Made by a program: the position numbers and the translations under genes. The notes below the pieces were generated by a model, which was not told the origin of the DNA, did no database searches, and was given only the letters and a program-made list of their open reading frames with translations. This document shows positions 2,925-19,532 of a DNA stretch of 20,429 bases, one piece after another; positions within the stretch are counted from its first letter, which is position 1, and the number at the start of each line of letters is the position of its first letter. Origin of the DNA: a virus (lineage: Duplodnaviria; Heunggongvirae; Uroviricota; Caudoviricetes); the IMG/VR virus record IMGVR_UViG_3300045988_007995, positions 1 to 20,429 of that record; one strand, written 5' to 3'.

Positions 2925-2949
2925 GTTATGTATAAATAAGGAGCACACC

Positions 2950-3090
2950 ATGCAATATGCCATTGCAGGGTGGCCTGTTGCTGGCTGCCCTTCCGAATCT
3001 TTACTTGAACGAATCACCCGTAAATTACGTGACGGATGGAAACGCCTTATCGACATACTTAATCAGCCAGGAGTCCCAAAGAATGGATAA
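2950..3090 (+). CDS. cIII: CIII (FtsH/HflB inhibitor), truncated to 46 aa relative to lambda
   Basis: ATG at 2950 after AAGGAG; product MQYAIAGWPVAGCPSESLLERITRKLRDGWKRLIDILNQPGVPKNG matches my recollection of the first 46 residues of lambda CIII (54 aa); TAA at 3088-3090 where lambda continues. Confidence 0.8.
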   Translation: MQYAIAGWPVAGCPSESLLERITRKLRDGWKRLIDILNQPGVPKNG

Positions 3091-7272: not shown

Positions 7273-7546
7273 CCTGCAACTTGCCGTTAAAGGTGAATAC
7301 TTCGATGCCATGATTCGCGGAGAGAAAACGGAAGAGTATCGCCTGTGTAATGACTACTGGAATAAGCGAATTATGTTCCGCGAGTATGACCGCCTGATTA
7401 TCACAAAGGGATATCCGAAGCGCGACGATTCCAGCCGCAGAATTGACGTCCCGTATGACGGATATGAAATCAAGACAATCACACATCCGCACTTCGGCGA
7501 TAAGCCGGCAAAGGTGTTCGCGATAAAGGTGAATATTGATGGCTAA
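7265..7546 (+). CDS. small PUA-like (ASCH/DUF3850-type) protein, tentative
   Basis: GTG at 7265 preceded by AGGAGG (7251-7256); 93 aa; YFDAMIRGEKTEEYR pattern reminiscent of ASCH/DUF3850 proteins (recollection only). Confidence 0.4.
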   Translation: MANLQLAVKGEYFDAMIRGEKTEEYRLCNDYWNKRIMFREYDRLIITKGYPKRDDSSRRIDVPYDGYEIKTITHPHFGDKPAKVFAIKVNIDG

Positions 7547-7841
7547 ATCAGCAGCAGAGCGCAAAGCCGCTCAGAGAGCCAGACAAGCTGCATCTGGTGT
7601 GCGTAAGCTGGAAATTGTGCTTGATGCTCAGGAAATTGAAATGCTGGAGCGTAACTGTGCCACGCGTCGCCCCGGGCGTGCGCCTTACGAATTTGGTGAG
7701 TATATAGCGTTACTGATCCGCCAGGATGATGCACGCGTGCACGGGCGTATAAAATCGATCAGCAGAAACGTTGCGGTAAGTGCGGCGAGAGAGTTCCCGT
7801 TAATTCATGCCCGTGTAATGGTGACTCGGAATGCTGGGTGA
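7539..7841 (+). CDS. hypothetical basic protein (100 aa), last gene before the packaging module
   Basis: ATG at 7539 after AAGGTG, overlapping previous stop; Arg/Ala-rich N-terminus; no HNH or other motif seen. Confidence 0.5.
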   Translation: MAKSAAERKAAQRARQAASGVRKLEIVLDAQEIEMLERNCATRRPGRAPYEFGEYIALLIRQDDARVHGRIKSISRNVAVSAAREFPLIHARVMVTRNAG

Positions 7842-7871
7842 CTAAAGGCTGGCATGAAACGAAATTAATAG

Positions 7872-7885
7872 CGTGACATGTCACG
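7872..7885. repeat. perfect palindrome CGTGACATGTCACG (copy 1 of 3 of the GTGACATGTCAC core)
   Basis: Exact dyad symmetry read directly; same 12-bp core recurs at 10138-10149 and 10531-10542. Confidence 0.9.
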
Positions 7886-7925
7886 AGTAGATTATGCATG
7901 ATGAATTTGATGGGTTTTGAATACT

Positions 7926-7951
7926 GCCGCCAACTATGGCGGCTTTATTTT
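7926..7951 (+). terminator. intrinsic terminator between the early operon and terS
   Basis: Hairpin GCCGCC-aactat-GGCGGC (7926-7943) followed by TTTATTTT. Confidence 0.7.
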
Positions 7952-7958
7952 GCATGGT

Positions 7959-7987
7959 ACTATTACCACAACGGTAACTATTACCAC
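7959..7987 (+). repeat. two exact 11-bp direct repeats ACTATTACCAC immediately upstream of the terS start
   Basis: Copies at 7959-7969 and 7977-7987 (18-bp period), ending 8 nt before the predicted terS ATG. Confidence 0.85.
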
Positions 7988-7994
7988 GGTGGTT

Positions 7995-8591
7995 ATGATG
8001 CCTGCTGAACCTAAAACCTATAAACGCAAATCAACGCAATTTAAGCCACTAACAGCAATGCAGGAGGCTTATTGCCAGTCATACATCAAAACGCCTGAAA
8101 ACCAGACTCAGGCAGCGATTAACGCAGGATTCTCCCCAAATACAGCGGCAGTTAAAGCCAGTCTCATGATGCGCGATGAACGCATTCAAAAACGGATTGC
8201 CGAGCTGATGGAAGAGCGCAACAAACGAATGCGCGTCAGTGCTGATTACGTTCTCATGCGCCTGGTGGAGATCGACCAGATGGACGTGATCGACATCCTC
8301 AACGACGATGGGAGCCTTAAGCCAATCCGCGAGTGGCCGAAAATCTGGCGCACTACGCTTAGTGGCTTTGATCTGTCATCGACCATCATGAACATGAACG
8401 AGGATTCGATAGAGACAATCCTCAAAAAAATTAAATGGCCTGACAAGGTGAAGAACCTCGAACTGATTGGTAAGCACGTCGACGTCAACGCATTCAAAGA
8501 ACGCCTGGATGTTAATGTGAATGTGACAATTGCTGATCGCATAGCGGCAGCCAGGAAGAGACTGAAAGAACGTCAGGATGGCAATCAGTGA
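7995..8591 (+). CDS. terS: terminase small subunit (P27-family-like)
   Basis: Located immediately upstream of and overlapping (GTGA) the large terminase gene; start placed at ATG 7995 (MMPAEPKTYKRK...) because the ORF-track extension from 7917 spans the terminator and direct repeats. Confidence 0.65.
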   Translation: MMPAEPKTYKRKSTQFKPLTAMQEAYCQSYIKTPENQTQAAINAGFSPNTAAVKASLMMRDERIQKRIAELMEERNKRMRVSADYVLMRLVEIDQMDVIDILNDDGSLKPIREWPKIWRTTLSGFDLSSTIMNMNEDSIETILKKIKWPDKVKNLELIGKHVDVNAFKERLDVNVNVTIADRIAAARKRLKERQDGNQ

Positions 8592-10063
8592 CAGATACAG
8601 CGTTATCTCCTGAAGAGCAGTTAATCGAGGATATTGCAGGGTTCACTCACGATCCGCTTGGCTATGCCCTCTATGCGTTCCCATGGGGGGAAGAGGGGAC
8701 TGAACTGGCACATGCCACCGGCCCACGTCAGTGGCAGGCTGATGCGTTCCGAGAGATACGTGATCACCTGCAGAATCCAGAGACGCGCTATCAGCCGCTT
8801 ATGCTGGCACGCGCTTCTGGTCACGGTATTGGTAAATCCGCATTCATCTCAATGCTGATCAACTGGGGCATGTCCACTTGCGAGGATTGTAAGGTCGTGG
8901 TGACCGCCAACACCGACAACCAGCTACGAACGAAGACCTGGCCGGAAATTATCAAGTGGTCGAACCTTGCTATCACGAAAGACTGGTTTACCTGTACCGC
9001 TACCGCGATGTACAGCAATGACCTAGGGCACGACAAGCGGTGGCGGGCTGACGCAATACCCTGGTCTGAGCACAACACCGAGGCATTCGCCGGACTACAC
9101 AACGAGCGCAAACGCATCATCGTGGTGTTTGATGAAGCGTCGAACATTGCGGATCTGGTGTGGGAAGTTGCCGAGGGTGCGCTTACGGACGAAGACACTG
9201 AGATTATTTGGGTGGCGTTCGGAAACCCTACACGTAACACCGGGCGTTTTCGCGAATGTTTCCGCAAATATAAACACCGCTGGAAAACTGCGCAGATTGA
9301 CAGCCGGACGGTGGAAGGCACTAACAAACAGCAGTTGCAGAAATGGGTTGATGACTACGGGGAAGACAGCGACTTCGTTAAAATCCGTGTGCGTGGCATA
9401 TTCCCTGATGCATCTGAATTGCAGTTTATCCCTACCGGTCTTACTGACGAGGCAATGAAACGGGTGGTAACCGCTGCGCAGGTTGCACATGCTCCGGTGA
9501 TAATCGGCGTTGACCCGGCATACTCCGGCGTTGATGACGCTGTGATATACCTGCGGCAGGGGCTACACAGTAAGGTGCTGTGGACTGGCAACAAGACTAC
9601 CGACGATCTGATTATGGCGAAGCGTATCGCTGACTTTGAAGACCAGTATCAGGCTGACGCGGTGTTCATCGACTTCGGTTACGGAACCGGTTTGAAGTCA
9701 ATCGGTGACGGCTGGGGTCGTACATGGCAACTTGTTCCGTTCGGTGGCGCGTCTACTGACCCGCAGATGCTCAACAAGCGTGGGGAGATGTTCAATTCAT
9801 GCAAGACATGGCTGAGGCTGGGCGGCATGCTGGATGACCAGGAAACAGCAGACGACCTGTCGGCGGCAGAGTACAAAGTTCGAGTGGACGGTAAAATCGT
9901 TATCGAACCGAAGGAAGATATCAAGGAGCGGCTTGGGCGTTCACCGGGTAAAGGCGATGCGCTACTGCTGACGTTTGCGTTCCCTGTGTCTAAGCGTCTG
10001 CGAATTCCCGGTCAGCAGAACCAGCAAGGCAAGGCCATCACAGATTACGATCCCTATGCTTAA
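8588..10063 (+). CDS. terL: terminase large subunit
   Basis: 491-aa ORF; GTG start overlapping terS stop; ATPase-like segment ...IIVVFDEASNI... (Walker B-like) and overall size and position typical of phage TerL. Confidence 0.85.
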   Translation: MTDTALSPEEQLIEDIAGFTHDPLGYALYAFPWGEEGTELAHATGPRQWQADAFREIRDHLQNPETRYQPLMLARASGHGIGKSAFISMLINWGMSTCEDCKVVVTANTDNQLRTKTWPEIIKWSNLAITKDWFTCTATAMYSNDLGHDKRWRADAIPWSEHNTEAFAGLHNERKRIIVVFDEASNIADLVWEVAEGALTDEDTEIIWVAFGNPTRNTGRFRECFRKYKHRWKTAQIDSRTVEGTNKQQLQKWVDDYGEDSDFVKIRVRGIFPDASELQFIPTGLTDEAMKRVVTAAQVAHAPVIIGVDPAYSGVDDAVIYLRQGLHSKVLWTGNKTTDDLIMAKRIADFEDQYQADAVFIDFGYGTGLKSIGDGWGRTWQLVPFGGASTDPQMLNKRGEMFNSCKTWLRLGGMLDDQETADDLSAAEYKVRVDGKIVIEPKEDIKERLGRSPGKGDALLLTFAFPVSKRLRIPGQQNQQGKAITDYDPYA

Positions 10064-10104
10064 TCCGCTGGTGGGGATAATGTCGTTGATATCCTCTGGT
10101 GAGG

Positions 10105-10133
10105 ATAAAACAAAGCCAGCTCATAGGCTGGCT
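10105..10133 (-). terminator. minus-strand intrinsic terminator downstream of the opposite-strand gene pair
   Basis: Hairpin AGCCAGC-ctatga-GCTGGCT followed on the minus strand by TTGTTTTAT; protects terL from antisense read-through. Confidence 0.5.
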
Positions 10134-10137
10134 GTTT

Positions 10138-10149
10138 GTGACATGTCAC
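10138..10149. repeat. palindrome GTGACATGTCAC (copy 2), 4 nt downstream of the gene A stop codon
   Basis: Exact 12-bp palindrome; flanking context CTGtTTGTGACATGTCACGGtGTTA nearly identical to copy 3. Confidence 0.9.
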
Positions 10150-10153
10150 GGTG

Positions 10154-10486
10154 TTATTTCGGTAGATTGTGTTTGGCATTCGACTCGTCTATCACGTAAC
10201 GCATTGCAGTTCGACCGAGATTACCAGGATCTTCATGCAGACTCACTCGTGCCTTTAGGAGCACACATTCAGCCTTGACATAGTTTGCTGGAATTATTCC
10301 TACCTCGGCATTTTTAAATGCCTCCTTCACCGCCTCACCGTTGTACTGACCGCCAAGCAACTCTGTACATGTCAGGTTGTTATGGATAATTGCAAGGAGA
10401 TCTTTAATCTCTTCACGCAGGTTTACAATCGCCATCGCGGCATTGATAGCTGCGGCATAGCGCTCAGCTGCAGTCTTCTCTTTCAT
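10154..10486 (-). CDS. hypothetical 110-aa protein (opposite-strand insert gene A)
   Basis: Minus-strand ORF; start placed at MKEKTAAERY... (ATG complement at 10484-10486) preceded by AAGGTGA; the only long ORF in this interval on either strand. Confidence 0.55.
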   Translation of the reverse strand: MKEKTAAERYAAAINAAMAIVNLREEIKDLLAIIHNNLTCTELLGGQYNGEAVKEAFKNAEVGIIPANYVKAECVLLKARVSLHEDPGNLGRTAMRYVIDESNAKHNLPK

Positions 10487-10498
10487 GATTTTCACCTT

Positions 10499-10525
10499 AA
10501 AAAAATGCCCGGCGAATCGGCGGGC
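10499..10525 (-). promoter_or_regulatory. conserved hairpin plus T7 tract directly upstream of gene A RBS (copy 1 of duplicated 5' element)
   Basis: Minus strand reads GCCCGCCGATTCGCCGGGCATTTTTTTAAGGTGAAAATCATG; terminator-like stem GCCCG/CGGGC then U-tract, immediately followed by the RBS. Confidence 0.5.
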
Positions 10526-10530
10526 TGATT

Positions 10531-10542
10531 GTGACATGTCAC
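10531..10542. repeat. palindrome GTGACATGTCAC (copy 3), 4 nt downstream of the gene B stop codon
   Basis: Exact 12-bp palindrome in context CTGaTTGTGACATGTCACGGcGTTA. Confidence 0.9.
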
Positions 10543-10546
10543 GGCG

Positions 10547-10969
10547 TTAGAAGGTTATTTTATCGAATGCGGCGTTGATTGCCTTGGCGTCCTGCTCAGC
10601 ACCAACCACATCAAGTAAAGATCTTTTACTAAGCACTTCAGCCAGGCATTGTAACTTCATGTTGTATAAGTTTTCGCGCATGTAATCATCATCACTTTTT
10701 TCTTTGGCGTATACAGCGCGAGAAATATCAAACACATTGCCTTTTTCCATTTCAGTTTTCTGCGCTGAAATCCAGTCATGGCAAGTAACTCCTATTCCAT
10801 GGTCATCGCTAAGCGTTAACCCGGCAAGTCGCTCACCTGGAATTGCTTCACAAAGCATTTCATTTCCTGCAAAAACACCATAAAAAATTGAGTCATCACC
10901 CTGAACAATGCGTACATATTTGCACGGCCATTCATTTAGATATTTAGCTAGCATGTCGGCTGTTTTCAT
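10547..10969 (-). CDS. hypothetical 140-aa protein (opposite-strand insert gene B)
   Basis: Minus-strand ORF; start placed at MKTADMLAKY... (ATG complement at 10967-10969) preceded by TAGGTGA; upstream ORF-track extension crosses the hairpin/T-tract and is rejected. Confidence 0.55.
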   Translation of the reverse strand: MKTADMLAKYLNEWPCKYVRIVQGDDSIFYGVFAGNEMLCEAIPGERLAGLTLSDDHGIGVTCHDWISAQKTEMEKGNVFDISRAVYAKEKSDDDYMRENLYNMKLQCLAEVLSKRSLLDVVGAEQDAKAINAAFDKITF

Positions 10970-10979
10970 GATCTCACCT

Positions 10980-11005
10980 AAAAAAAATGCCCGGCGAATC
11001 GGGCG
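10980..11005 (-). promoter_or_regulatory. conserved hairpin plus T8 tract directly upstream of gene B RBS (copy 2 of duplicated 5' element)
   Basis: Minus strand reads CGCCCGATTCGCCGGGCATTTTTTTTAGGTGAGATCATG; about 40 nt alignable with copy 1. Confidence 0.5.
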
Positions 11006-11045
11006 AACTGGAAGCAATGAGTTATGCCTTCCGTGGCTGTACTGG

Positions 11046-11085
11046 TTTACAGCATGAAGCCATCGCAATGGCGTCATGCTGTAAA
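11046..11085. repeat. 40-bp near-perfect nested palindrome
   Basis: TTTACAGCATGA-aGCCATcgcaATGGCg-TCATGCTGTAAA: 12-bp outer arms with a 5-bp inner dyad. Confidence 0.85.
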
Positions 11086-11124
11086 AAGGGCGGTGATAGT
11101 CCTTCAAGGGAAACCATCACCGCC
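11083..11124 (-). terminator. minus-strand terminator 43 nt downstream of the tRNA
   Basis: 9-bp stem GGCGGTGAT/ATCACCGCC with 18-nt loop, followed on the minus strand by CTTTTT. Confidence 0.5.
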
Positions 11125-11167
11125 AAGCCCCTGGAACTTCTGGCATCACGGTCCTTAGGCGTGATTC

Positions 11168-11244
11168 TGGCGTGGCATGCAGGATTCGAACCTGCGACCA
11201 ACCGCTTAGAAAGCGGTTGCTCTGTCCAGCTGAGCTAATGCCAC
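11168..11244 (-). tRNA. tRNA-Arg (anticodon UCU), phage-encoded
   Basis: 77-nt cloverleaf on the minus strand: acceptor GTGGCAT/ATGCCAC, D-stem GCTC/GAGC, anticodon stem ACCGC/GCGGT with loop TT-TCT-AA, T-stem GCAGG/CCTGC with TTCGAAT loop, discriminator G and encoded CCA. Confidence 0.85.
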
Positions 11245-11671
11245 AACGCTGAGAGCACTTAGCCTGTTAAGGCGCCACACTTTGTCGCGGCTCCATAAAT
11301 GCTCTCATCGTTGTACCCTCGTCTCTTCCGAGGCGTCACACCGAATCGCCGGGATGGTGAATCCCCGTGCGCGGAATAAAACCGCTCGACTTGCACATTC
11401 CGGCTACCTGGTTCGTTTGCCACAGCCAGGGAGGGTGCCCCTTAAACGTATCCAGACCGCTATCGGCGCATGTGCCATACGCCGTACTGCTCAAAATAAA
11501 AGCTCACTCCACCTGTTCAATTTAACGACAAGCCAGTCAGGTTAGTAACCGGAATGAACTCTTTGGTTACCTGAAAGGTAATAATTTGTGCGTTAAATGT
11601 CAACTACCTACGATAAATAAATCATATGTGGTTAAATTGGTAATAATTTAATTGCGTACGGAGTCATTGAT

Positions 11672-11878
11672 ATGTGCATGGGTAGCTCACCATCAGTGCC
11701 TGCAACACCAGAAGTTCAGGCAGCACCACAGGAGCAGGATGCCGCCGTTGTTGATGCCCGCGACGAAGAAACTCGTCGCCGTCGCGCTGCTGCTGGTCGT
11801 AGTTCTACGCTGCTTACCGGTTCTCAGGGCGACACATCAACCGCTAATACCAGCGGTAAAACGCTGCTTGGTCAGTAA
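11672..11878 (+). CDS. small virion-associated protein candidate (T7 gp6.7-like?), 68 aa
   Basis: ATG at 11672 preceded by GGAG; begins MC..., Ser/Pro/Ala-rich; immediately upstream of the portal gene, whose leader shares the motif CGGAGTCATTGA(t/a)ATG. Confidence 0.45.
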   Translation: MCMGSSPSVPATPEVQAAPQEQDAAVVDARDEETRRRRAAAGRSSTLLTGSQGDTSTANTSGKTLLGQ

Positions 11879-11892
11879 CCGGAGTCATTGAA

Positions 11893-13572
11893 ATGGCGGA
11901 AACAACTAAAGAGCGATTGAACAAACAGTTCGCACAACTTGAAAGCGAGCGTCAGTCGTTCGAGCCGCACTGGCGCGAGTTGAGTGATTACATCAACCCG
12001 CGTGGTTCCCGCTTTCTGACTTCTGAGGTCAACCGTAACGATCGACGCAATACACGCATTATTGATTCGACCGGGACTATGGCGGCGCGCACTCTCGCCA
12101 GCGGCATGATGTCAGGCATCACAAGCCCCGCGCGTCCGTGGTTTCGCCTGGCTACGCCAGATCCTGAAATGATGGATTATGGCCCTGTTAAGTTGTGGCT
12201 TGAGGCGGTGCAGAACCGCATGAACGATATGTTCAATAAGTCGAATCTCTATCAGTCGCTGCCGCAGTTATACGGAAGCCTCGGCACATACAGCACTGGT
12301 GCAATGGCAGTGCTGGAGGATGACGAGGACATCATTCGCACAATGCCATTCCCGATAGGCAGTTACTACCTGGCTAACTCACCTCGTGGCAGTGTGGACA
12401 CCTGTTTTCGCAAGTTCTCTATGACTGTTCGTCAGCTTGTTCAGGAGTTCGGGCTAAATAACGTCAGCGAATCCGTAAAAAGCATGTGGGAAAGCGGAAC
12501 CTACGAGAAGTGGATTGAAGTGATGCATTCGGTTTACCCGAACATTGACCGCGATACATCGAAGCTGGATAGCAAGAACAAGCCATTCAAATCGGTTTAT
12601 TACGAGGTTGGTGGCGATAACGACAAGTTGTTGCGTGAGTCCGGATTCGATGAGTTTCCAATTATGGCTCCGCGCTGGGAAGTTAACGGCGAAGATGTTT
12701 ATGGATCATCATGCCCGGGTATGCTGGCGCTTGGACCTGTTAAGGCATTGCAGCTTCTCCAGAAGCGCAAGTCGCAGTTGATTGATAAAGCCACCAATCC
12801 GCCGATGGTTGCTCCGACTTCCCTCAAGAATCAGCGTGCCTCCCTTCTTCCTGGCGACATCACGTATATCGATCAGATTACTGGTCAGGATGGTTTCAGG
12901 CCTGCTTATCTGGTTAACCCCAGTACAGCAGATTTGGTGGCAGACATTCAGGACACCCGTCAAATCATTAACAGCGCCTACTTTGTCGATCTGTTCATGA
13001 TGTTGCAGAACATCAATACCCGCTCGATGCCTGTTGAAGCGGTGATCGAAATGAAAGAAGAAAAACTTCTGATGTTGGGGCCGGTTCTGGAGCGTCTGAA
13101 CGACGAATGTCTTAATCCTCTCATTGACCGCGCTTTCTCGATGATGGTGCGTAAAAACATGCTGCCGCCACCGCCTGACGCGATGGAAGGTATGCCCCTG
13201 AAGGTCGAATACATTTCCGTCATGGCTCAGGCGCAGAAGTCTATCGGCCTGTCCAGTCTGGCGTCTACGGTCAACTTCATTGGTCAACTTGCGCAAGCGA
13301 AACCAGAAGCTCTCGACAAACTCAACGTTGATCAGGCGATCGATGCATTCGCTGATATGTCCGGAGTGTCTCCAACCGTCATTGTTCCGCAGGAACAGGT
13401 TGAGCAGGCTCGCCAGCAACGGGCACAGCAACAACAGCAGCAACAAATGATGGCGATGGGGATGGCGGCGGCACAGGGTGCCAAGACGCTAAGCGAAGCT
13501 AAAACTTCGGATCCGAGTGTTTTGTCAGCTATGGCGAATGCAGTTAGTGGTCAGGGTGGGCAATCACAATGA
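11893..13572 (+). CDS. portal (head-to-tail connector) protein, T7 gp8-like
   Basis: 559-aa ORF following terL; C-terminal Q/A/M-rich tract (QQRAQQQQQQQMMAMGMAAAQGAK) resembles the T7 connector C-terminus as I recall it. Confidence 0.8.
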   Translation: MAETTKERLNKQFAQLESERQSFEPHWRELSDYINPRGSRFLTSEVNRNDRRNTRIIDSTGTMAARTLASGMMSGITSPARPWFRLATPDPEMMDYGPVKLWLEAVQNRMNDMFNKSNLYQSLPQLYGSLGTYSTGAMAVLEDDEDIIRTMPFPIGSYYLANSPRGSVDTCFRKFSMTVRQLVQEFGLNNVSESVKSMWESGTYEKWIEVMHSVYPNIDRDTSKLDSKNKPFKSVYYEVGGDNDKLLRESGFDEFPIMAPRWEVNGEDVYGSSCPGMLALGPVKALQLLQKRKSQLIDKATNPPMVAPTSLKNQRASLLPGDITYIDQITGQDGFRPAYLVNPSTADLVADIQDTRQIINSAYFVDLFMMLQNINTRSMPVEAVIEMKEEKLLMLGPVLERLNDECLNPLIDRAFSMMVRKNMLPPPPDAMEGMPLKVEYISVMAQAQKSIGLSSLASTVNFIGQLAQAKPEALDKLNVDQAIDAFADMSGVSPTVIVPQEQVEQARQQRAQQQQQQQMMAMGMAAAQGAKTLSEAKTSDPSVLSAMANAVSGQGGQSQ

Positions 13573-13865
13573 CAGATTACGAAGACGATCAACTGAAAGA
13601 AGAAAACGCCCGTAAGCAACGTGACATGGCACAGCGTGAAATTGATGACATTTGCTTTGTCATGAGCAGTGAACAGGGGCGTCGCGTTGTCTGGTCGGTG
13701 CTGGAGAAAGGCCGTGTGTTTTCCGCTATCTCACCGATGGACGCTATGGCAATGGCATTTAATGAGGGGCAACGCAATCTGGCGCTGGAACTGTTTCAGC
13801 GCGTTATGGCGCATTGCCCTGAACAGTATTTGAAGATGGCCAAAGAGGCCAGTGAACAGGAGTGA
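13569..13865 (+). CDS. hypothetical protein (98 aa) between portal and scaffold genes
   Basis: ATGA overlap with portal stop; acidic; no motif assigned. Confidence 0.5.
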   Translation: MTDYEDDQLKEENARKQRDMAQREIDDICFVMSSEQGRRVVWSVLEKGRVFSAISPMDAMAMAFNEGQRNLALELFQRVMAHCPEQYLKMAKEASEQE

Positions 13866-17061: not shown

Positions 17062-19532
17062 TGGCTATCAGTTGGATCCAGCCCAGCTTTGCCGGTGGTG
17101 AGATTGGACCGTCGTTGTACGGGCGTATTGACATGGCGAAGTACCAGGTGGCATTGCGCAAGTGCGATAACTTTATCGTGCGGCAGTATGGCGGCGTTGA
17201 GAATCGACCAGGTACGCGTTTTGTCGGTGCCGCCAAATACCCAAATCGGAAATGCCGCCTGATCCCGTTCCAGTTCTCGACGGTTCAGACCTATGCTCTG
17301 GAGTTCGGACACCAGTACATGCGCGTTATCAAAGATGGTGCGTTGGTGCTGAACAGCAGCAATGTTATTTATGAAATTGCCACGCCATATACTGAAGCCG
17401 ATCTGTTCCGAATTAAATTCACGCAAAGCGCCGACGTGCTTACGCTTGTTCATCCGGCATACCCGCCGAAAGAGTTGCGTCGCTATGCGCATGACAACTG
17501 GCAACTGGTTGATGTGGTAACGAAGAACGGACCATTTGAAGATATCAATATTGACGAGTCAGTGACGGTTTATGCCAGCGCCAGCACCGGGACAATTACG
17601 TTAACGGCAAGCGCCTCTATTTTTGGCGCGGAGCAGGTAGGCAAATTGTTCTATCTGGAACAGCCTGCAGTGGATTCTGTGCCGGTATGGGAAACCAGTA
17701 AGAGTACGTCAATTGGCGATATTCGCCGTGCAGACAGTAACTACTATCGCGCCGTTACAGTAGGCAAAACAGGCACTTTGCGCCCTTCGCATACAGAAGG
17801 CACATCATGGGATGGCTGGGGCGGATCCGGTGATGATGATACCGGCATTGAGTGGGAGTATCTGCACAGTGGTTTTGGCATTGCCCGTATCTCTGCTGCA
17901 AATGGAACTACTGCAACTGCCGAGGTGATTTCCTATATCCCTTCGCAGGTAGTTGGCGAGGATAATGCCAGCTATAAATGGGCTAAATATGCCTGGAACA
18001 GTGTTAATGGTTATCCTGGCACTGTTGTTTATTATCAACAACGTCTTTACTTCGCCGCATCGACTGCGTTTCCTCAGACTATCTGGGCCAGCCGTACCGG
18101 GGATTATAAGGATTTTGGCAAAAGCAATCCTACGCAGGATGACGACAGAATTATCTACACCTATGCCGGGCGTCAGGTTAATGAGATCCGCCACCTGATT
18201 GATGTTGGTTCGCTGGTGGCGCTGACTTCCGGAGGTGAGTACGTCATCACTGGCGACCAGAACAAAGTGCTTACCCCATCACCATTTGCATTCAGCTCTC
18301 AGGGATCAAATGGCTCGAGCAATGTCCCACCAATTGCCGTGGCGAATATTGCTCTGTTCGTCCAGGAGAAAGGCAGTGTTGTCCGTGATCTGGCCTACTC
18401 ATTCGATGTTGACGGCTATCAGGGGAACGACCTTACTATCCTTGCCAATCATCTTTTTCAGAAGCACAGCATTGTTGACTGGTGCTTCTCAATAGTCCCT
18501 TACTCCAGCGCCTTCTGCATCCGTGATGACGGTAAATTACTGGTGATGACCTATTTGCGTGATCAGCAGGTTTTTGCATGGGCACCACAATCCAGTACCG
18601 GAAAATATGAAAGCACATGCAGTATCAGCGAAGGCAATGAAGATGCGGTGTATTTCGTCGTTAACCGAACCGTTAACGGGCAAACAGTGAGATACATCGA
18701 GCGACTGTCCAGCCGTTTATTTACCAGCGATGAAGATGCTTTCTTTGTTGATTCTGGCCTTAGCTATGATGGAAGAAATACGTCTGACAGAACGATGATC
18801 ATCACTGGTGGTTCTGGCGAATGGGATTACCGCGCGGAATATACAATCAGTGTTTCTGGTGGTGCGTACTTCACCAGTAGTGATGTCGGCGCGCAACTAC
18901 AGTTCCCTTATACCGGAACTGATCCTGATACTGGCGATGAGGTGTCAAAAGAATTACGTTGCGACATTATTTCTGTAACCAGCAATACCGCTGTAGTGGT
19001 TCGTGCTAACAGGAACGTCCCGCCATCCCTCAGGAATGTGGCCACCACGAACTGGCAGATGGCGCGCCGGACATTTGGAGGCCTGTCTCATCTTGAAGGC
19101 CAGACCGTAAACATTCTCTCTGATGCGAACGTGGAACCACAGAAAGTGGTTTCCGGAGGTGCCGTCACGCTGGAATCACCGGGGGCTGTAGTGCACATCG
19201 GCCTGCCAATAACTGCTGAATTCGAAACACTGGATATCAACATTAACGGACAGGAAACGCTGCTGGACAAAAAACAGGTGATCCCGTCCGTTACTCTGGT
19301 TGTGAATGCCAGTCGCGGCATCTGGGCGACTACGCCCGGCGGTAAATGGCACGAATATCCACAGCGTGAATTCGAGTTCTACGATGATCCTGTTGATGAT
19401 GCTACCGGAAAAGTAGAAGTGAAACTGGACAGTAACTGGGGCAAAAACGGGCGTGTAAAAATCCGTCAGCTTGACCCGTTGCCGCTGTCTGTTCTTGCCG
19501 TTATTCCTCGCCTTACTGTTGGGGGATTCTGA
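17061..19532 (+). CDS. tail tubular protein B / nozzle (T7 gp12-like)
   Basis: 823-aa ORF, ATG overlapping upstream stop (TGATG); size and synteny with the gp11-like gene. Confidence 0.5.
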   Translation: MAISWIQPSFAGGEIGPSLYGRIDMAKYQVALRKCDNFIVRQYGGVENRPGTRFVGAAKYPNRKCRLIPFQFSTVQTYALEFGHQYMRVIKDGALVLNSSNVIYEIATPYTEADLFRIKFTQSADVLTLVHPAYPPKELRRYAHDNWQLVDVVTKNGPFEDINIDESVTVYASASTGTITLTASASIFGAEQVGKLFYLEQPAVDSVPVWETSKSTSIGDIRRADSNYYRAVTVGKTGTLRPSHTEGTSWDGWGGSGDDDTGIEWEYLHSGFGIARISAANGTTATAEVISYIPSQVVGEDNASYKWAKYAWNSVNGYPGTVVYYQQRLYFAASTAFPQTIWASRTGDYKDFGKSNPTQDDDRIIYTYAGRQVNEIRHLIDVGSLVALTSGGEYVITGDQNKVLTPSPFAFSSQGSNGSSNVPPIAVANIALFVQEKGSVVRDLAYSFDVDGYQGNDLTILANHLFQKHSIVDWCFSIVPYSSAFCIRDDGKLLVMTYLRDQQVFAWAPQSSTGKYESTCSISEGNEDAVYFVVNRTVNGQTVRYIERLSSRLFTSDEDAFFVDSGLSYDGRNTSDRTMIITGGSGEWDYRAEYTISVSGGAYFTSSDVGAQLQFPYTGTDPDTGDEVSKELRCDIISVTSNTAVVVRANRNVPPSLRNVATTNWQMARRTFGGLSHLEGQTVNILSDANVEPQKVVSGGAVTLESPGAVVHIGLPITAEFETLDININGQETLLDKKQVIPSVTLVVNASRGIWATTPGGKWHEYPQREFEFYDDPVDDATGKVEVKLDSNWGKNGRVKIRQLDPLPLSVLAVIPRLTVGGF

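Follow-up and report, generated by a model that had tools for sequence, protein, structure and literature searches.

We analyzed the 20,429-nucleotide (nt) viral stretch IMGVR_UViG_3300045988_007995 (positions 1 to 20,429 of the record, hereafter the window), which derives from an epsilon15/phiV10-like podophage of the genus Uetakevirus and is 97.5% identical to Escherichia phage vB_EcoP_PAS61 over positions 7400-11950. The window carries three copies of a perfect 12-base-pair (bp) palindrome, GTGACATGTCAC, each the core of a 14-bp site with two-fold symmetry. Judging from sequence comparison, these sites are probably bound by a dimer of the phage's own gp49-family protein, with copies 2 and 3 as satellites of the copy at that protein's gene, and a role as a boundary between transcription units is the function that we favor.

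The exact palindrome occurs at 7873-7884, 10138-10149 and 10531-10542, the coordinates given in an original prediction made from the letters of the window, and there is no fourth exact copy in the window. When the window was shuffled and up to two mismatches were allowed, matches averaged 0.97, and the exact 12-mer is calculated to arise ~0.001 times per 20 kb; the triplication is confirmed as real, highly non-random and far above chance. None of the three 14-bp sites is assigned to a strand. Copy 1, which we call the home site, spans 7872-7885 (CGTGACATGTCACG), and copies 2 (10137-10150) and 3 (10530-10543) both read TGTGACATGTCACG and stand 4 nt past the minus-strand TAA stop codons (10154-10156 and 10547-10549) of two accessory cassette genes, A and B respectively. 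The context of roughly 25 bp that the latter two copies had been said to share next to these opposite-strand stops turned out to be a common stretch of 27 nt (GGCTGnTTGTGACATGTCACGGnGTTA; 10130-10156 and 10523-10549), and copy 2 sits within a 16-nt block, TTGTGACATGTCACGG. An open reading frame (ORF) listed at 10154-10537 has its start ATG within palindrome 3; its true start is at 10486, behind an AAGGTG ribosome-binding site. A one-mismatch copy (GTGACATGGCAC) at 13621-13632 is intragenic, has a counterpart at the homologous position of phiV10 (5306) and is probably not a functional site.

Because selection on the motif was to be avoided, related loci were fetched only by protein homology to epsilon15 gp49, phiV10 gp55 or N15 gp46 (PHROG 536). 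In 605 kb of such DNA, 44 GTGAC-N2-GTCAC sites were found where ~0.6 were expected; 20 genome loci from different species (373 kb) held 29 sites (0.36 expected), and 51 N15-like and Vibrio viral contigs (913 kb) held 110 (0.87 expected). The enrichment was specific to the 2-nt spacer, which gave 44 and 110 sites, while spacers of 0, 1 or 3-10 nt gave 0-1 each. A logo built from 45 distinct contexts had 14 informative positions between flat flanks; of the 90 bases at -1 and +12, 88 were Y and R respectively. The general motif is Y-GTGAC-N2-GTCAC-R (14 bp). This pattern is characteristic of double-stranded DNA bound by a symmetric dimer. A protein-binding site is thus the best supported of the three identities originally proposed, given the symmetric 14-bp information, the strict 2-nt spacer and the linkage, described below, to a gene for a predicted ribbon-helix-helix (RHH) protein.

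The site is tied closely to one gene. It lay on or just past the stop codon of the gp49-family gene in ~66 of 71 homology-fetched loci, among epsilon15-like, N15-like and Yersinia P2-like phages alike; in the 20-locus sample, 17 loci had a site at 0-36 nt from where the homology match ends, and in the sample of 51 N15-like and Vibrio loci, 49 had one at the gene end. In N15 gene 46, GTGACTGGTCAC overlaps the TGA stop, and in the homologue of a Yersinia P2-like phage GTGACGCGTCAC does so. The N15, Yersinia P2-like and epsilon15-like genes thus carry the site on the TGA despite a protein identity of 32-41%, with TG, GC and AT as the respective central dinucleotides. In phiV10, epsilon15, PAS61 and 59 of 77 close relatives, the stop is the TGA inside the palindrome (equivalent to window positions 7874-7876), and the intact protein encoded in those 59 relatives has 112 amino acids (aa). 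The window gene (7539-7876, plus strand; the last early-right gene) is frameshifted: relative to phiV10, one nucleotide is deleted from an A-run near 7765 (AAAA to AAA), which causes a -1 frameshift, and the ORF as read stops at 7839-7841, without the Cys-rich C-terminus. Copy 1 had been placed 30 nt after a plus-strand gene; it does lie 31 nt past the TGA of this ORF, but the gap is an artefact of the 1-nt deletion. The frameshift could reflect an error in sequencing or a genuine defect, with the gene a pseudogene. The tight linkage between gene and site points to the gene's own product as the likely binder.

Copies of the motif recur at homologous places in related phages. Salmonella phage epsilon15 has exact copies at 2142 (past the minus-strand gene that follows terL), at 19517 (the late operon end, where the TGA stop of gp18 lies within the palindrome and a terminator follows 2 nt further) and at 39612 (the end of gp49, whose TGA stop is likewise within the palindrome). 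phiV10 has exact copies at 2262 and 19493 and a third, with one mismatch, split across the arbitrary ends of the record; those of vB_EcoP_PAS61 are at 12343, 14608 and 32674. N15 has three GTGAC-TG-GTCAC sites, and in N15-like phages (L231-L279; N15 33237, 28550) one conserved satellite lies within the 5′ portion of the replication gene repA, at a distance of 4.3-7.1 kb from the home site, and another follows the last gene of the repA operon, so that the two bracket the operon. Yersinia phages have the home site alone, and Vibrio phage K308 has three 12-mers. Lambda, from which the gene is absent, has no GTGAC-N2-GTCAC; it carries two GTGAC-N1-GTCAC sites (~0.05 expected). Some GC-rich viral contigs (L024, L043, L053, L072, L110) contain clusters of 4-8 CGTGACA or TGTCACG half-sites at irregular spacing, which lie within apparent replication-protein genes, look like the iterons of replication origins and probably employ this half-site for an unrelated purpose.

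The gp49 family, annotated in PHROG 536 as 'transcriptional regulator', is narrow, with 1.84 billion representatives yielding 196 clusters at 50% identity, and its hosts are Enterobacterales, Vibrio and Aeromonas. Members are stand-alone proteins of ~105-135 aa; no informative domain fusions were found among distant homologues, no Pfam family covers them, and sequence revealed no relative of solved structure. AlphaFold gave a predicted local distance difference test (pLDDT) score of only 58 from a shallow alignment; a diverse alignment was needed, and with it the model reached a pLDDT of 90.8 and a predicted template-modeling score (pTM) of 0.68, with helices at 5-19, 30-42, 52-74 and 100-108. 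Weak structural matches of this model were mostly RHH DNA binders, MatP among them, and sub-threshold sequence matches were to RHH_5, RHH_1, RepB-RCR_reg and the LexA-regulated protein YbfE; an N-terminal RHH fold is likely but not established. Conserved cysteines (C79, C82, C99 and usually C91) suggest a zinc-binding tail, and weak matches to YbiI/TraR zinc fingers (E ~0.03) are just a lead toward a possible contact with RNA polymerase. Sequence searches of the PDB gave nothing significant (matches to phycobilisome linkers were by chance), the viral structure library returned just a fragment of the same family, and PADLOC matched neither the regulator nor the cassette genes to a defence system.

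A site that is short (~12-14 bp), two-fold symmetric and sharply bounded in information is what is expected of an RHH operator. RHH repressors and antitoxins such as Arc, Mnt, CopG, ParD and TacA, which are the best though weak structural matches of the family and are joined by weak family-level sequence hits, are likewise small dimeric proteins that bind short symmetric sites. Their operators, however, lie at promoters, usually upstream of their own gene and often as tandem sub-sites, whereas the window sites are single, at 3′ ends and beside terminators, and the phage protein has an additional Cys-rich domain. The family is not a general analogue of the late regulator Q, since N15 has its own Q (gene 40) and gp46 sits mid-operon.

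A genuine intrinsic terminator adjoins every copy in the window. The palindrome itself was rightly said to have too short a stem for a terminator: an intrinsic terminator has a GC-rich stem of at least 5-7 bp and a U-run, and RNA folding of the palindrome yields just a mini-hairpin of 4-5 bp, with no U-run. The separate terminators stand 4-41 nt away. The one after copy 1 (7926-7951, plus strand; GCCGCCAACTATGGCGGC followed by TTTATTTT) is 41 nt downstream, upstream of terS. That after copy 2 (10105-10133 or, more narrowly, 10114-10133; minus strand) consists of the hairpin AGCCAGCCTATGAGCTGGCT and TTGTTTTAT (TTGTTTT) and begins 4 nt past the palindrome; read on the plus strand, this hairpin also faces terL, with the palindrome in the position of the U-tract. 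That after copy 3 (10500-10525 or, more narrowly, 10507-10525; minus strand; GCCCGCCGATTCGCCGGGC, an A and T7) lies 5 nt past the palindrome and is directly followed by the ribosome-binding site of gene A. A further minus-strand hairpin with a T-run (10980-11004), just upstream of the ribosome-binding site of gene B, lacks a palindrome and delimits the cassette array on its 5′ side. A predicted terminator was found within 10 nt of 12 of the 44 sites, compared with 2.9% of random positions. At the two convergent junctions the palindrome stands where the U-tract would be on the strand whose hairpin has none. Sites of the epsilon15-like clade flank the late transcription units: one precedes terS, one follows terL and one closes the structural operon.

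The sites also stand at joints where accessory genes vary. Downstream of terL, an alignment of nine phages from different host genera has TTGTGACATGTCACGG as its only invariant block; the adjoining hairpin varies in sequence yet stays paired, and the other flank is unrelated between phages. In 80 prophages with 99-100% identical terL genes, the terminator and palindrome are constant, 75 nt past terL, and beyond the palindrome come several unrelated 3′ gene ends from at least three unrelated families. The ends found at this joint belong to a Phage_gp49_66 protein (as in phiV10), gene A, several alleles of gene B and an 8-codon remnant. Every variant end preserves the stop codon, 3-4 nt and the palindrome, and the late operon end and the region after the home site give the same mosaic picture. 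The tandem arrangement of two cassettes is also present in 6 of the 80 relatives; copy 3 is the joint between two tandem cassettes, brought along by the second. Each cassette has a terminator-like hairpin and T-run immediately ahead of its ribosome-binding site and shows no evident promoter of its own. In some relatives (within L126-L205) the 8-codon remnant, MKYEFDGF, lies between the cassette ribosome-binding site and the palindrome, and a comparable mini-frame follows the cassette gene of epsilon15; both resemble scars left by the deletion of gene-B-type cassettes.

Since no DNA but the site and its terminator is conserved in this highly variable region, accessory genes can be swapped there by homologous recombination. 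The epsilon15-like phages encode RecT/RecE-type recombinases, and together with a conserved joint of ~45 bp these make homologous exchange sufficient, so that a dedicated recombinase is not needed. The integrases annotated in phiV10, epsilon15 and PAS61 are of ordinary phage type (P4- or lambda-type where typed). The proposal of a recombination or cassette boundary is therefore supported, as a consequence of the protein-binding site: unrelated genes adjoin the same TAA-N4-palindrome-terminator joint, and no recombinase is implicated.

The motif, its enrichment and spacer specificity, the gene-site linkage, the terminator adjacency and the mosaic joints are observations, from which we infer the identity of the binder and the effect of its binding as follows. 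A dimer of the gp49-family protein, through its predicted N-terminal RHH domain and with its Cys-rich C-terminus, would bind Y-GTGAC-NN-GTCAC-R. Copy 1 would be the home site overlapping the stop of the gene, and copies 2 and 3 satellites placed at the ends of transcription units against terminators. The bound dimer would act as a boundary element that roadblocks or pauses RNA polymerase at hairpins lacking a good U-tract on one strand, and a polymerase stalled at the hairpin would make the terminator work in both directions. The dimer might also bridge sites, and the packaging, structural and accessory units would thereby be insulated from one another; insertion of a second cassette in tandem would have given rise to copy 3.

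Several observations weigh against this proposal. The 3′-end location is unusual for RHH repressors. The sites of N15, Yersinia and Vibrio phages are not beside terminators, and this adjacency is confined to the epsilon15-like clade, so the boundary role is not a general function of the protein family; nor is it the whole story, with N15-like satellites in and after the repA operon and the Yersinia home site standing alone. In K308 the closest site lies ~226 nt away from the gene, and one homologue (L216) has no site at its gene end. Finally, since the gene for the putative binder is frameshifted in the window, the sites there either need the protein in trans or are relics, unless the frameshift is a sequencing error.

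The motif resembles matS, the binding site of MatP, which is concentrated in the terminus macrodomain of the host chromosome. matS is defined as the 13-bp sequence GTGAC[AG]N[CT]GTCAC with a 3-nt spacer (PMC3603311, PMC8669397). The inverted half-sites GTGAC and GTCAC are identical in the two motifs, and removing one central T from the E. coli consensus matS, GTGACATTGTCAC, yields GTGACATGTCAC, a likeness that the original prediction overlooked, as it did the adjoining terminators and the tie to the upstream gene. The window copies are not matS by that definition, as all are 12 bp with a 2-nt spacer. An earlier screen of prophages used the 13-bp pattern, which the 12-bp motif could not match. 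In K308 (L208), the 13-bp sequence GTGACACCGTCAC at 19491-19503 fits the true matS consensus (~0.01 expected by chance).

One explanation for this likeness is that the gp49/gp46 family is a phage counterpart of MatP, a minimal RHH protein that reads matS-type half-sites set 1 bp closer together. Both systems use single dispersed sites rather than arrays and an RHH reader (the phage reader being a predicted one), and the MatP-matS complex was among the top structural matches of the phage protein. However, the phage protein, at ~112 aa, has a Cys-rich C-terminus in place of the four-helix bundle and coiled coil of MatP, its sites lie in phage DNA at gene ends, one of them overlapping the stop codon of the proposed binder itself, and hhalign of the family against E. 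coli MatP gave an insignificant probability of <1%. The identical half-sites, the predicted common fold class and the match between the family's hosts and MatP-bearing bacteria are nonetheless striking. We consider such kinship unlikely. If it held, these phages would bridge or insulate their own DNA, or would interfere with or plug into the MatP/MukBEF terminus machinery of the host; the family would stay orthogonal to true matS, and its restriction to phages of MatP-bearing bacteria would reflect shared ancestry or mimicry.

Alternatively, the palindrome could be a passive recombination joint (a 'linker') or the target of a site-specific enzyme, with no bound regulator. The exact joining of unrelated cassette genes at TAA-N3-4-palindrome, the differences among phages in the sequence past the home site and the RecT/RecE-type recombinases are all consistent with this idea. 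A passive joint, however, gives no reason for a perfect inverted repeat with a strict 2-nt spacer, nor for its invariance while the neighboring hairpin drifts; it leaves unexplained why the same half-sites lie on the stop of the same gene in N15-like and P2-like phages with unrelated flanks, and no recombinase or nuclease gene travels with the site. We therefore regard it as rather improbable. The arrangement does resemble the boundary ('linker') sequences of lambdoid phages, in which a short conserved sequence at module junctions joins different genes; unlike those, the motif here is strictly symmetric, is present in unrelated phage types and is always tied to one gene, which implies a function of its own. 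It also resembles integron cassettes, in that tandem, apparently promoterless genes are each followed by a palindromic element at which cassettes exchange. An integron attC site, however, is an imperfect repeat of 57-141 bp with GTTRRRY cores recognized by IntI, whereas the conserved block here is 14-16 bp (16 nt in the terL alignment) plus a terminator, and no integron integrase was found among the annotations of related genomes; homologous recombination is the simplest explanation of the exchange.

MatP is present in Enterobacterales, Vibrio and Aeromonas, and host MatP might itself bind the sites as matS-like, linking phage or prophage DNA to the terminus-organizing machinery. This idea draws on the identical half-sites and the single missing T, on the reading of matS by MatP through its central RHH, on the coincidence of the family's hosts with MatP-bearing taxa and on the one true 13-bp consensus site of K308. 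We consider it very unlikely: matS is defined with a 3-nt spacer, and related loci favor 2 nt over 3 nt by 154 sites to 1; true matS was not present in any of 500 Escherichia and Salmonella prophages, where it appears to be selected against; and a host factor leaves the placement of the site on the stop codon of one phage gene unexplained.

Still less probable is a role in RNA, in which the mini-hairpin in the 3′ untranslated region before the terminator would be a processing or stability signal or the seed of a 3′-derived small RNA. The site is always transcribed at gene 3′ ends, and three of the four contexts folded gave a predicted hairpin of 4-5 bp with a CAUG loop. However, its stem is marginal, the fold predicted at epsilon15 19517 lacks it, and the half-sites are invariant and never covary, with single-base variants left uncompensated. 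Moreover, the 14-mer is found in both orientations relative to the transcript, and an Rfam scan of the window at gathering thresholds had no match at the palindromes. The RNA-processing signal of the original prediction thus found no support.

That the palindrome provides -35-like hexamers (GTGACA, on both strands), for instance for a late promoter between the regulator gene and terS, is scarcely credible, for although a scan finds GTGACA-18-CATGAT at 7873-7902 and the epsilon15 sequence by eye has GTGACA-17-TAAATT, promoter-like sites are fewer than in shuffles (3 vs 4.8), the transcript would start at or within the terminator hairpin, copies 2 and 3 meet terminators or coding sequence within 4-5 nt and have no consistent -10 element, and variants have a ribosome-binding site directly past the palindrome. 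A CRP site (TGTGA-N6-TCACA) was correctly dismissed from the start on spacing, GTGA and TCAC being 4 nt apart and not 6. A pac or cos site for TerS was also rejected, as the same site accompanies unrelated terminases and packaging modes (N15 and P2-like phages use cos) and also lies far from terS. The dispersed centromere (SopB) sites of the plasmid-prophage N15 are a few inverted repeats for one protein scattered among phage genes; they differ from GTGAC-N2-GTCAC in sequence and in their binder, which is of ParB type, and, unlike N15, the epsilon15-like and P2-like carriers are chromosomally integrated and lack a partition system.

A literature search for the 12-mers (GTGACATGTCAC and the N15, Yersinia and Vibrio variants) returned no relevant paper, and no precedent for the pairing of the site with the gp49/gp46 family or for its one-base relation to matS was found in the searchable literature. 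A widespread uncharacterized family of epsilon15-like, N15-like, P2-like and Vibrio phages thereby gains a candidate DNA site and a testable function, and the single exact point at which accessory genes are exchanged between terminase and portal of epsilon15-like phages would be explained. If the proposed boundary role is true, phage transcription units would be insulated in an unusual way, with a protein on the DNA completing a terminator that is otherwise one-sided. As only one base separates the motif from matS, one may ask if phages imitate, avoid or make use of the system by which the host organizes its chromosome.

On the window map, the home site is followed by terS (7986-8591) and terL (8588-10063), both on the plus strand. 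On the minus strand lie gene A (10154-10486; 110 aa, phrog_27507) and gene B (10547-10969; 140 aa, phrog_4846), neither with an assigned function, and, upstream of these accessory cassettes, tRNA-Arg(TCT) (11168-11244); the portal gene (11893-13572) is on the plus strand. The tRNA-Arg is followed on its strand by two hairpins (11089-11124 and 10989-11004). The only matches in the Rfam scan were a tRNA and the lambda cIII thermoregulator, the latter with 88.5 bits at 2937-2995 (plus strand) in the early region, which points to a cIII module of lambda type and a mosaic makeup of that region.

Three inverted repeats of the form ATTACC-N5-GGTAAY are also present, at 7962-7978 and 7980-7996, just upstream of or over the start of terS, and at 11566-11582, upstream of a small gene before the portal gene (6 strand matches vs 0.17 expected). 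They match sites annotated in epsilon15 as prophage-repressor operators; the operator of the epsilon15/SPC32H prophage repressor (ATTACC-N5-GGTAAT) is thus a different motif from the palindrome and is present separately, at 7962-7996 and 11566-11582.

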